From a virus (taxonomy: Duplodnaviria > Heunggongvirae > Uroviricota > Caudoviricetes), in IMG/VR virus record IMGVR_UViG_2778261065_000002, positions 1-19,822 of that record: a stretch of 19,822 bases of DNA, one strand, 5' to 3'. Position numbers and translations under genes: made by a program. The stretch's first letter is position 1. The number at the start of each line of letters is the position of its first letter. The notes below the pieces were generated by a model that was given only the letters and a program-made list of their open reading frames with translations, ran no database searches and had not been told where the DNA came from. This document shows, in pieces, positions 721 to 1,619 of this stretch.

Positions 721-993
721 ATGAAATTTTATGAATTATCTTCTGATTCCCGATCTCAGGCCAAAATCACACTGGGTCAGTTGATTGTGGCTCGGGCTAA
801 CACCGGGGTGGATGATTTTGAAAATTTGGGGCATTGCATCGCTGCCGCGTTTATTGCGATGGAGCGCCATGAAAGCGCCCCTGAGGTTGGTGAGGGGCGT
901 AGCGGGAACGGAATACCCGTTAATGGCGATCAAAAACTAGCATCCAACGTCGTGAACGTGATGATTCACTATCCGTGTGACTCTATAGCGTGA
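721..993 (+). CDS. Hypothetical small protein (90 aa), first gene of accessory cassette
   Basis: ATG at 721 preceded by GGAGAA RBS (the ORF-track start at 688 lacks an RBS); no family recognised. Confidence 0.5.
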   Translation: MKFYELSSDSRSQAKITLGQLIVARANTGVDDFENLGHCIAAAFIAMERHESAPEVGEGRSGNGIPVNGDQKLASNVVNVMIHYPCDSIA

Positions 994-1049
994 CAGCGAC
1001 AGTAAATTGGGTAAAATTTTCTACGCTGCAATATGCGAAAGGGGATGAA

Positions 1050-1619
1050 ATGAACGATCTGCCCGATGACTACTTTCTTGATGCTGACGATGATCTTGTC
1101 GATTTTCTTGAAAAACAGGGTGAAGACTGCATAGGTGAAATCTATCGGTCAAATTCAGTAAATAAAGAAAATGGCTATAAGCTGTTGAGCATCCTAATCG
1201 TCGGTATTGGATCTTCATTTTTGCTGTTAACGCAAAAGACGCAGATTGACTTTCTTAGCGCAGGCATTGCCGTTTTCACCGTGTACTGGTCAGTTTGTGC
1301 TATTTATCTTGTTATTAATGTGCTGACGGTTCACACATACGGACTTGTTTCCACATCACCTGCAGATTTGTATACCGAAGCTTATAAAGGGATTTGCGAG
1401 TCCGATTTCGAGAACCTTAAGGCAAGGGGTTTTGTCGGTAAAAATGACCGCCTTTCAGTGATGAGGCGGTACAGATTGAAAACGTTATGTGTGACTGCTG
1501 ATGAGTTGCTCCAGGTCAATGAAACCATAAGAACCAGACTGAAAAAAGCAAGGATAGCGACTATCCTTGCTCCTGTTTACGCGATTATTATTTCAGCTAT
1601 CACTTACCTTTTTTTCTGA
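1050..1619 (+). CDS. Hypothetical membrane protein (189 aa; acidic N-terminus, three predicted TM helices)
   Basis: ATG at 1050 preceded by AAAGGGGA RBS; hydrophobic segments LLSILIVGIGSSFLLL, GIAVFTVYWSVCAIYLVINVL and C-terminal IATILAPVYAIIISAITYLFF; region is visibly more AT-rich than the head genes. Confidence 0.6.
   Translation: MNDLPDDYFLDADDDLVDFLEKQGEDCIGEIYRSNSVNKENGYKLLSILIVGIGSSFLLLTQKTQIDFLSAGIAVFTVYWSVCAIYLVINVLTVHTYGLVSTSPADLYTEAYKGICESDFENLKARGFVGKNDRLSVMRRYRLKTLCVTADELLQVNETIRTRLKKARIATILAPVYAIIISAITYLFF

Follow-up and report, generated by a model that had tools for sequence, protein, structure and literature searches.

The window analysed here, a stretch of 19,822 nucleotides (nt) of virus record IMGVR_UViG_2778261065_000002, was found to be the late region of a Rac-like lambdoid prophage of Escherichia coli, with positions 600–1950 being 99.8% identical to strain BCE049. 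From left to right, it contains a gene for an ORF6N anti-repressor-like protein (2–583), a terminator, two genes referred to here as gene 1 (721–993) and gene 2 (1050–1619), a minus-strand open reading frame (ORF) of 48 amino acids (aa), a conserved non-coding block, a hairpin and a second terminator. Just downstream of the latter lies a lambda-type holin gene (starting at 1955 or 1964), followed by genes for a GH24 endolysin and Rz/Rz1, a 185-aa minus-strand ORF, terS and the head genes. A preliminary description, made from the sequence alone, had taken positions 721–1619 as a two-gene accessory cassette, in which a small protein and a membrane protein with three transmembrane (TM) segments would form one exclusion or abortive-infection system. 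Both ORFs exist. However, the boundaries and the gene count of this unit were wrong, with a third gene on the minus strand (1600–1746) having been overlooked, and the constant companion of gene 2 is this small antisense gene, not gene 1.

Gene 1 (plus strand, phrog_26625) begins with an ATG preceded at 6–7 nt by the ribosome-binding site (RBS) CTGGAG and encodes a soluble protein of 90 aa. Gene 2 (plus strand, phrog_11870) encodes a 189-aa inner-membrane protein with three predicted TM segments; its start at 1050 was preferred over a GTG at 990 on the basis of 52 homologues, nearly all of which are 189 aa long with an invariant M1. The small antisense gene (minus strand, phrog_14506) has an RBS (GGAG) 8 nt before its ATG and overlaps the last 20 nt of gene 2, with its 48-aa product being hydrophilic, P/Q/K-rich and net basic in the window. 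RefSeq annotates gene 1 and gene 2 at exactly the coordinates of the window in a 99.8% identical E. coli prophage, and leaves the small antisense ORF without annotation in that prophage. The ratio of nonsynonymous to synonymous substitution rates (dN/dS) was 0.16–0.2 for gene 1, 0.06–0.11 for gene 2 and 0.08–0.21 for the small antisense gene. With all values between 0.06 and 0.21, the three are considered to be protein-coding and under purifying selection.

The hydrophobic segments of the gene 2 protein were located at residues 42–63, 66–100 and 166–189. As its N-terminus is acidic (13 D/E vs. 3 K/R in residues 1–42, predicted to be cytoplasmic, as had been proposed) and the loop between TM2 and TM3 is basic with an RRYRL motif, an N-in/C-out arrangement is predicted for these three segments. 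An AlphaFold model with a predicted local distance difference test score (pLDDT) of 87 has long helices at residues 14–62, 68–92 and 134–188. The average guanine-plus-cytosine (G+C) content of gene 2 is 41.2% compared with 52% for positions 5000–19822, which hold the structural genes, and that of gene 1 is 49.1%. The view that the pair is more AT-rich than the head genes is therefore correct for gene 2 and only marginally so for gene 1.

Co-occurrence of the two genes was assessed across 5426 complete E. coli genomes. Gene 1 DNA was identified in 23 of these, 18 of which lack gene 2, have a match ending at nt 935 and carry a convergent YmfI-like gene beside gene 1, and members of the gene 2 family were found in at least 234, of which 229 lack gene 1. 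The two are thus present together in only five of the ~252 genomes having either gene. The same separation was observed in other genera, the closest gene 2 alleles (Klebsiella, 88% identity, and Citrobacter, 85% identity) being without gene 1 and their DNA homology to the window starting at 1010/1040. The expectation that the pair travels together was consequently not borne out: gene 1 belongs to one cargo unit of this mosaic slot and gene 2 to another, unrelated one, and they do not make up a co-travelling cassette.

By comparison, a convergent small ORF overlapping the gene 2 stop codon by 20–32 nt was found at 17 of 18 distinct intact loci. These partner ORFs are 43–53 aa in length, begin with MS or MA, and are hydrophilic and rich in P, Q, K and S. 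The pairing was seen in E. coli, Yersinia, Proteus, Serratia, Trabulsiella, Klebsiella and Citrobacter, and it holds across three Q families (DUF1133, PF03589, and PF06530) and three holin families (3_1, 2_1, and 3_3). It is kept after relocation, namely adjoining the CI repressor gene in the early-left direction (locus L015) and between Mu-like packaging genes (locus L017), and also in a member whose protein is only 18% identical to that of gene 2 in the window (locus L033). At all of these positions gene 2 is read in the direction of the lytic operon around it, with the small gene on the opposing strand. The functional unit is accordingly about 990/1010 to 1746, with backbone control elements extending to 1871, rather than 721–1619. 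The gene 2 family itself is large: clustering at 90% identity gives at least 145 groups and clustering at 50% gives 92 representatives, all unnamed and nearly all of 160–200 aa. Every context examined was a prophage, and members are known from at least 10 genera of Enterobacterales and from ~4% of complete E. coli genomes.

A candidate sigma-70 promoter for gene 2, GTGACA-16-TAAAAT (990–1017, plus strand), was identified by scanning, with 10 of 12 consensus matches and a -35 hexamer that overlaps the stop codon of gene 1. The sequence GGTAAAAT or GGTAAGAT, the putative -10 element, is kept ~35 nt before the gene 2 ATG in the window and at loci L004, L028 and L029, and the sequence farther upstream is unrelated among them. 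No terminator on the minus strand was detected after the small ORF by the scan, for which reason its transcript should run antisense into gene 2.

The slot that holds these genes was found to be variable. The left-flank element comprising a promoter and terminator (598–711) is present in 1124 of the 5426 complete E. coli genomes, O157:H7 included, the whole cassette is present in only five, and different fillings are found between common flanks. Variant B (locus L003) of 820 bp carries a 76-aa form of gene 1 with a convergent gene for a 92-aa YmfI-like protein, and variant C (locus L004) of about 1116 bp carries a gene 2 homologue (58% identity) with a convergent small ORF and without gene 1; both have the two flanks of the window. 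Homology between the window and the other variants picks up again at 1758–1769, inside the conserved block. On this evidence the slot between the late terminator and the holin gene is a variable cargo site, and both genes are accessory. Neither is a conserved core late gene found in every related phage. The placement in a moron slot upstream of the lysis genes, as first described, is thus supported, and it is the position in which the Shiga toxin genes of Stx phages occur, after pR'/tR' and ahead of the lysis genes (PMC7547250). The annotation of phage P22 agrees with this order, Q being followed by pR', tR', a gap and the holin gene, with tR' reached within about 60 nt.

The right-hand border of the slot is made up of three elements (1765–1871) that recur in phages from six or more genera, which differ in their types of Q and holin. 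The first is the conserved block GGTTAnnTnTnGCnATTnnACnATAnCA (1765–1800), which can be abbreviated as GGTTA..GGCGATTTAACGATATCA. On the minus strand, positions 1796 to 1788 read TGaTATCGT, resembling an extended -10 element, of which the bases TGnTATnGT are invariant. The block lies 33 nt from the ATG of the minus-strand ORF in both the window and variant B, that is, next to two unrelated minus-strand cargo genes. It is therefore regarded as a candidate leftward promoter, with a 5' untranslated region, that the backbone would supply to any cargo gene on the minus strand. A search of the block for a conserved sigma-70 promoter in the rightward direction found none. The possibility that it is a true late promoter with a Q-utilisation site was also considered and rejected, as the block is conserved over four Q families and pR'/tR'-like units are located directly after Q. 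The second element is the inverted repeat GCCAGA-N7-TCTGGC (1812–1830, plus strand), positioned between the block and the right terminator, whose stem is kept with other sequences in Proteus (GCCAGT/ACTGGC) and in Trabulsiella and Citrobacter (GCCGCC/GGCGGC). The third is an intrinsic terminator (1840–1871, plus strand, with a stem at 1840–1861 and a T tail), folding at -16.4 kcal/mol (z -3.2), in which eight stem pairs have compensatory changes across six genera.

At the left border, an intrinsic, tR'-like terminator (676–709, plus strand, with a stem at 676–701 and a T tail) was predicted to fold at -16.1 kcal/mol (z -4.2). At homologous loci a terminator occurs at the equivalent place and is followed by an identical CTGGAG RBS. 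Terminator scanning and folding energies hence confirm the intrinsic terminators reported for both borders. Upstream, a promoter-like sequence, TTGCAA-17-TTCAAT (590–618, plus strand), is probably the start of a short pR'-type transcript ending at the 676–709 terminator some 60–85 nt farther on, and this 590–711 unit might give a short StxS-like RNA. The 598–711 element occurs directly 3' of gene Q in phage vB_EcoS-666R9. In this prophage, the unit is instead preceded by the ORF6N gene; it is another candidate pR' (TTGACT-18-TATATT with a terminator) that is located directly 3' of Q, ~270 nt before the start of the window (L002, 8100–8230). A search of positions 500–2100 against Rfam identified no RNA family, the lone match (STnc370) being far below threshold. 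It was also observed that Actinobacillus phage vB_Apl-pPE4 (PP818812.1, 16432–17179; host label A. pleuropneumoniae) has an E. coli-type tR' element at 94.7% DNA identity and encodes a gene 2 homologue at 66% aa identity, the host label being unexpected for such an E. coli-like sequence.

Gene 1 in the window is a chimera. Its residues 1–72 match the usual form of 73–76 aa, similarity to its relatives stops at nt 935 (codon 72), and residues 73–90 form a new tail of 18 residues, the last 19 codons of the gene being unlike those of every other form. Given this junction and the separability of the two genes elsewhere, the window is regarded as a recombinant in which the left part of variant B was joined to the gene 2 module. 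The homologues of gene 1 in Enterobacter and Citrobacter (loci L011–L014) encode proteins of 73–86 aa, ~100 nt after Q and directly behind a terminator, each being paired with a convergent overlapping gene of 95–96 aa. This usual partner is a minus-strand protein of 92–96 aa, the E. coli copy of which (L003, 3338–3616) has a weak match to NCBIfam YmfI_phage (57 bits vs. a cut-off of 140), and the YmfI-like gene and gene 1 could likewise constitute a convergent pair that is conserved. Only 12 nt separate the T-tract of the left terminator from the start of gene 1, whose RBS abuts that T-tract. As this leaves no room for a promoter of its own, it should be transcribed solely by read-through of the late transcript. 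The layout of an isolated unit, as originally envisaged, may hold for gene 2, with its candidate promoter and the right terminator, and not for gene 1.

Scans of gene 1, gene 2 and the small ORF against Pfam, NCBIfam, PADLOC and PHROGs returned only PHROGs of unknown function, in keeping with the statement that neither of the first two proteins is recognisable, as no described family was matched for either. With PADLOC-DB v2, gene 1 and the small ORF had no matches and gene 2 had only one of E = 0.029 to an unrelated endonuclease model. A more remote homology had been suggested as a check, and the searches made in this direction were negative. A PDB sequence-profile search found nothing meaningful (best GpsB, E = 0.06). 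None of 61 diverse members of the gene 2 family reached threshold in a Pfam scan, which gave scattered sub-threshold TM matches, the best scores being for PycTM (16.1 bits, cut-off 27.2) and SLATT_3 (12.9 bits, cut-off 26.3) and confined to hydrophobic segments. Alignment of the gene 2 family profile with those of P22 SieA and SieB by hhalign gave probabilities of 0.1 and 0.3%, respectively, and no match to Pfam SieB was found. No specific fold was matched for gene 2. The AlphaFold model of gene 1 (a helical hairpin of residues 8–27 and 33–52 with pLDDT 70–82, then a disordered tail) was judged too small and too low in confidence (pLDDT 57) for a fold search. Gene 2 also had no holin family match; its protein has 189 aa with a ~75-residue cytoplasmic loop and a predicted N-in/C-out topology, and the lambda-type holin is encoded by the next gene. 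Literature searches with the protein accessions and PHROG identifiers gave nothing, and no described membrane moron between Q and the holin was found by keyword.

Taken as a whole, the interval is best explained, with moderate confidence, as a mosaic of two cargo units in which gene 2 and its antisense partner would be under reciprocal control. Gene 1 would be the first ORF of the Q-dependent late transcript and a hitch-hiker rather than a partner of gene 2, with recombination at ~nt 935 having removed its YmfI-like partner and added the new tail. The other unit would be a mobile two-gene module, consisting of gene 2 with the candidate promoter at 990–1017 and the opposite-strand small gene that overlaps its end. 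In a lysogen, the leftward promoter in the block (~1796 to 1788) would drive the small gene, whose transcript would be antisense to gene 2 and whose product may attach to the acidic region of the membrane protein on the cytoplasmic side, so that gene 2 would stay low or inactive. Strong rightward transcription, which would be late transcription antiterminated by Q in this prophage and early-left or Mu late transcription in distant relatives, would flip this balance, with the membrane protein accumulating and the small gene being silenced. The target of the membrane protein would then be the inner membrane, its most likely role being either in phage conflict (exclusion of superinfecting DNA or abortive permeabilisation) or in modulation of the phage's own lysis. 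The genes present, their mosaic origin and accessory status, the association of gene 2 with the antisense gene and the absence of known homologues are observations, whereas we infer the promoters, the inhibitor role and the biological function of the module and propose the reciprocal regulation by analogy with the Tha/Ith system described below. It is most likely a mobile membrane-effector moron that would be restrained by its antisense partner, with a role in exclusion or abortive infection being a possible, if tentative, assignment.

Several observations weigh against this interpretation. The module proteins have no homology to exclusion, abortive-infection (Abi), holin or toxin families. 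The candidate promoters are at the level of consensus matches, and the scan tool, which requires two hexamers, missed the extended -10. A very distant member of the gene 2 family (locus L032) is without the antisense ORF. The small protein is net basic at most loci and net acidic at L017, meaning that a simple charge-complementarity model is not general. The proposed orientation, with the small gene on in the lysogen and gene 2 raised lytically, suits a late-acting function at least as well as a defence of the lysogen. Finally, homologues of gene 2 are disrupted by insertion sequences (IS), truncation or frameshift in four of nine species-representative genomes among the matches listed (loci L024, L025, L026, and L027), with gene 2 being frameshifted and the small antisense ORF intact at the Leclercia locus (L026). 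These disruptions may fit a cost or toxicity of gene 2; ordinary prophage decay fits them too.

The joint action of the small soluble protein of gene 1 and the membrane protein of gene 2 as one two-component defence or exclusion system is highly improbable. The two genes are adjacent, on the same strand, 56 nt apart and between two terminators, their combination is found in five complete genomes, and the 90-aa form of gene 1 belongs to a protein cluster of 53 members. However, those five stand against the ~252 genomes bearing either gene, the nearest gene 2 alleles lack gene 1, and a recombination junction lies within gene 1 at nt 935. Each gene also has another constant partner elsewhere, the YmfI-like gene for gene 1 and the antisense ORF for gene 2. 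A more credible, although still unlikely, alternative is that gene 2 and its antisense partner are an accessory of the phage's own lysis, for example by timing it in the manner of an antiholin, by depolarising the membrane or by preventing, at a late stage, re-infection of the lysing cell. Most loci are indeed directly upstream of the holin gene and co-oriented with Q-dependent late transcription, gene 2 follows the direction of the surrounding lytic operon wherever it is found, with the small gene antisense, and its product is a predicted inner-membrane protein. Counting against such a role are the occurrence of the module alongside three unrelated holin families and, at L015 (immunity/early-left) and L017 (Mu-like packaging), away from lysis genes, and the absence of gene 2 from most phages that have the same lysis cassette. 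In addition, no holin or antiholin family was matched, and the candidate promoter and downstream terminator suggest that expression of gene 2 is independent of Q.

Convergent transcription with a 3' overlap is typical of several type I toxin-antitoxin loci, and it is this layout that brings to mind an addiction or toxin-antitoxin-like pair, in which a membrane toxin would be countered by a small labile antitoxin or by antisense RNA and the pair would serve to maintain the prophage or the slot, not to combat other phages. The interruption of gene 2 by IS or frameshift in the four of nine species-representative genomes among the matches listed, with survival of the small ORF in Leclercia, points in the same direction, and a hok toxin gene elsewhere in the same prophage suggests that such cargo is tolerated. 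Known type I toxins are, however, shorter than 60 aa, compared with 189 aa and a large conserved cytoplasmic domain for gene 2; moreover, the small ORF is selected at the protein level and not only as RNA, and no toxin-antitoxin family was matched. This possibility is considered more unlikely than a lysis accessory, and a membrane effector held in check by its antisense partner is preferred.

If the module is a regulated membrane effector of this type, it would represent a new and widespread family among prophage conflict or lysis-control systems, and would extend the principle of an overlapping antisense inhibitor from Staphylococcus aureus to Gram-negative phages. It is conceivable, though rather doubtful, that it is a previously undescribed self-regulating membrane effector moving among temperate phages of Enterobacterales and beyond, with a potentially lethal protein that would be silent in lysogens and released by crossing lytic transcription, whether from the prophage itself or, possibly, set off by an invader. 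It would then be a Gram-negative, membrane-acting counterpart of the S. aureus Tha/Ith system, and the backbone would be a plug-in site for interchangeable antisense cargo. The block that apparently drives different minus-strand cargo is in any case a testable example of cargo exchange in the slot between Q and the holin gene. For experimental work, a clone of 721–1619 would include an irrelevant chimeric gene and lose the antisense partner with its putative promoter, which could result in a toxic or misregulated construct and a misleading phenotype.

Farther to the right in the window, the spanin genes (2769–3324) were observed to be of the overlapped type, with Rz at 2769–3161 and a Rz1/LysC-like ORF (2980–3324) that extends beyond the Rz stop codon; only the LysC part is annotated at this locus by RefSeq in the identical prophage. 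The 185-aa ORF on the minus strand (3624–4181; phrog_30882, function unknown; 42% G+C) is situated antisense between Rz/Rz1 and terS, and had no match in Pfam, NCBIfam or PADLOC nor in 50,697 phage records. Tai defence genes have been reported upstream of the packaging module (PMC11364771), a position corresponding to that of this ORF, which can be viewed as another candidate moron, arguably of no less interest than the main finding.

With respect to known systems, the module may be placed among the morons and the antisense-regulated prophage effectors. Its nearest precedent in architecture is the Tha/Ith system of S. aureus prophages, in which a small overlapping antisense gene encodes an inhibitor that ties a defence effector to the phage life cycle (PMC11087260). 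This "noncontiguous operon" resembles the module in that a prophage cargo effector and a small overlapping gene on the opposite strand are found inside a larger phage operon. The small gene of Tha/Ith has its own promoter and links effector activity to the switch between lysogeny and lysis, features for which the counterparts in the module are putative. The two systems have no sequence relationship, and Tha is a soluble HEPN protein whereas gene 2 encodes a membrane protein. Their polarity is also reversed, as Tha is in the cI operon and on in lysogeny, with Ith rising upon induction, whereas gene 2 is co-oriented with lytic transcription.

The lambdoid morons between Q and S, such as stx, are alike in their site just after pR'/tR' and before the lysis genes, in being present or absent among near-identical prophages, in their lower G+C content and in having terminators on both sides. 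They differ in that the cargo of the window is unrelated to toxins and a leftward promoter for minus-strand cargo seems to come from the backbone; gene 1, moreover, lacks its own promoter and does not qualify as a self-contained moron. SieA and SieB of P22 and SieB of lambda are, like the gene 2 product, small inner-membrane proteins of prophages, of similar size (164 and 192 aa) and with their own promoters, yet they have no detectable similarity to it, another TM arrangement and another genome position. SieB has a cognate self-protection product, Esc, which is an in-frame internal product, unlike the antisense gene here. Finally, the SLATT and PycTM effectors with two TM segments share with gene 2 the order of a cytoplasmic helix, a TM hairpin and a charged cytoplasmic helix, to which gene 2 adds a third, C-terminal TM helix, and no nucleotide cyclase or sensor gene is located nearby, setting the module apart from these effectors.

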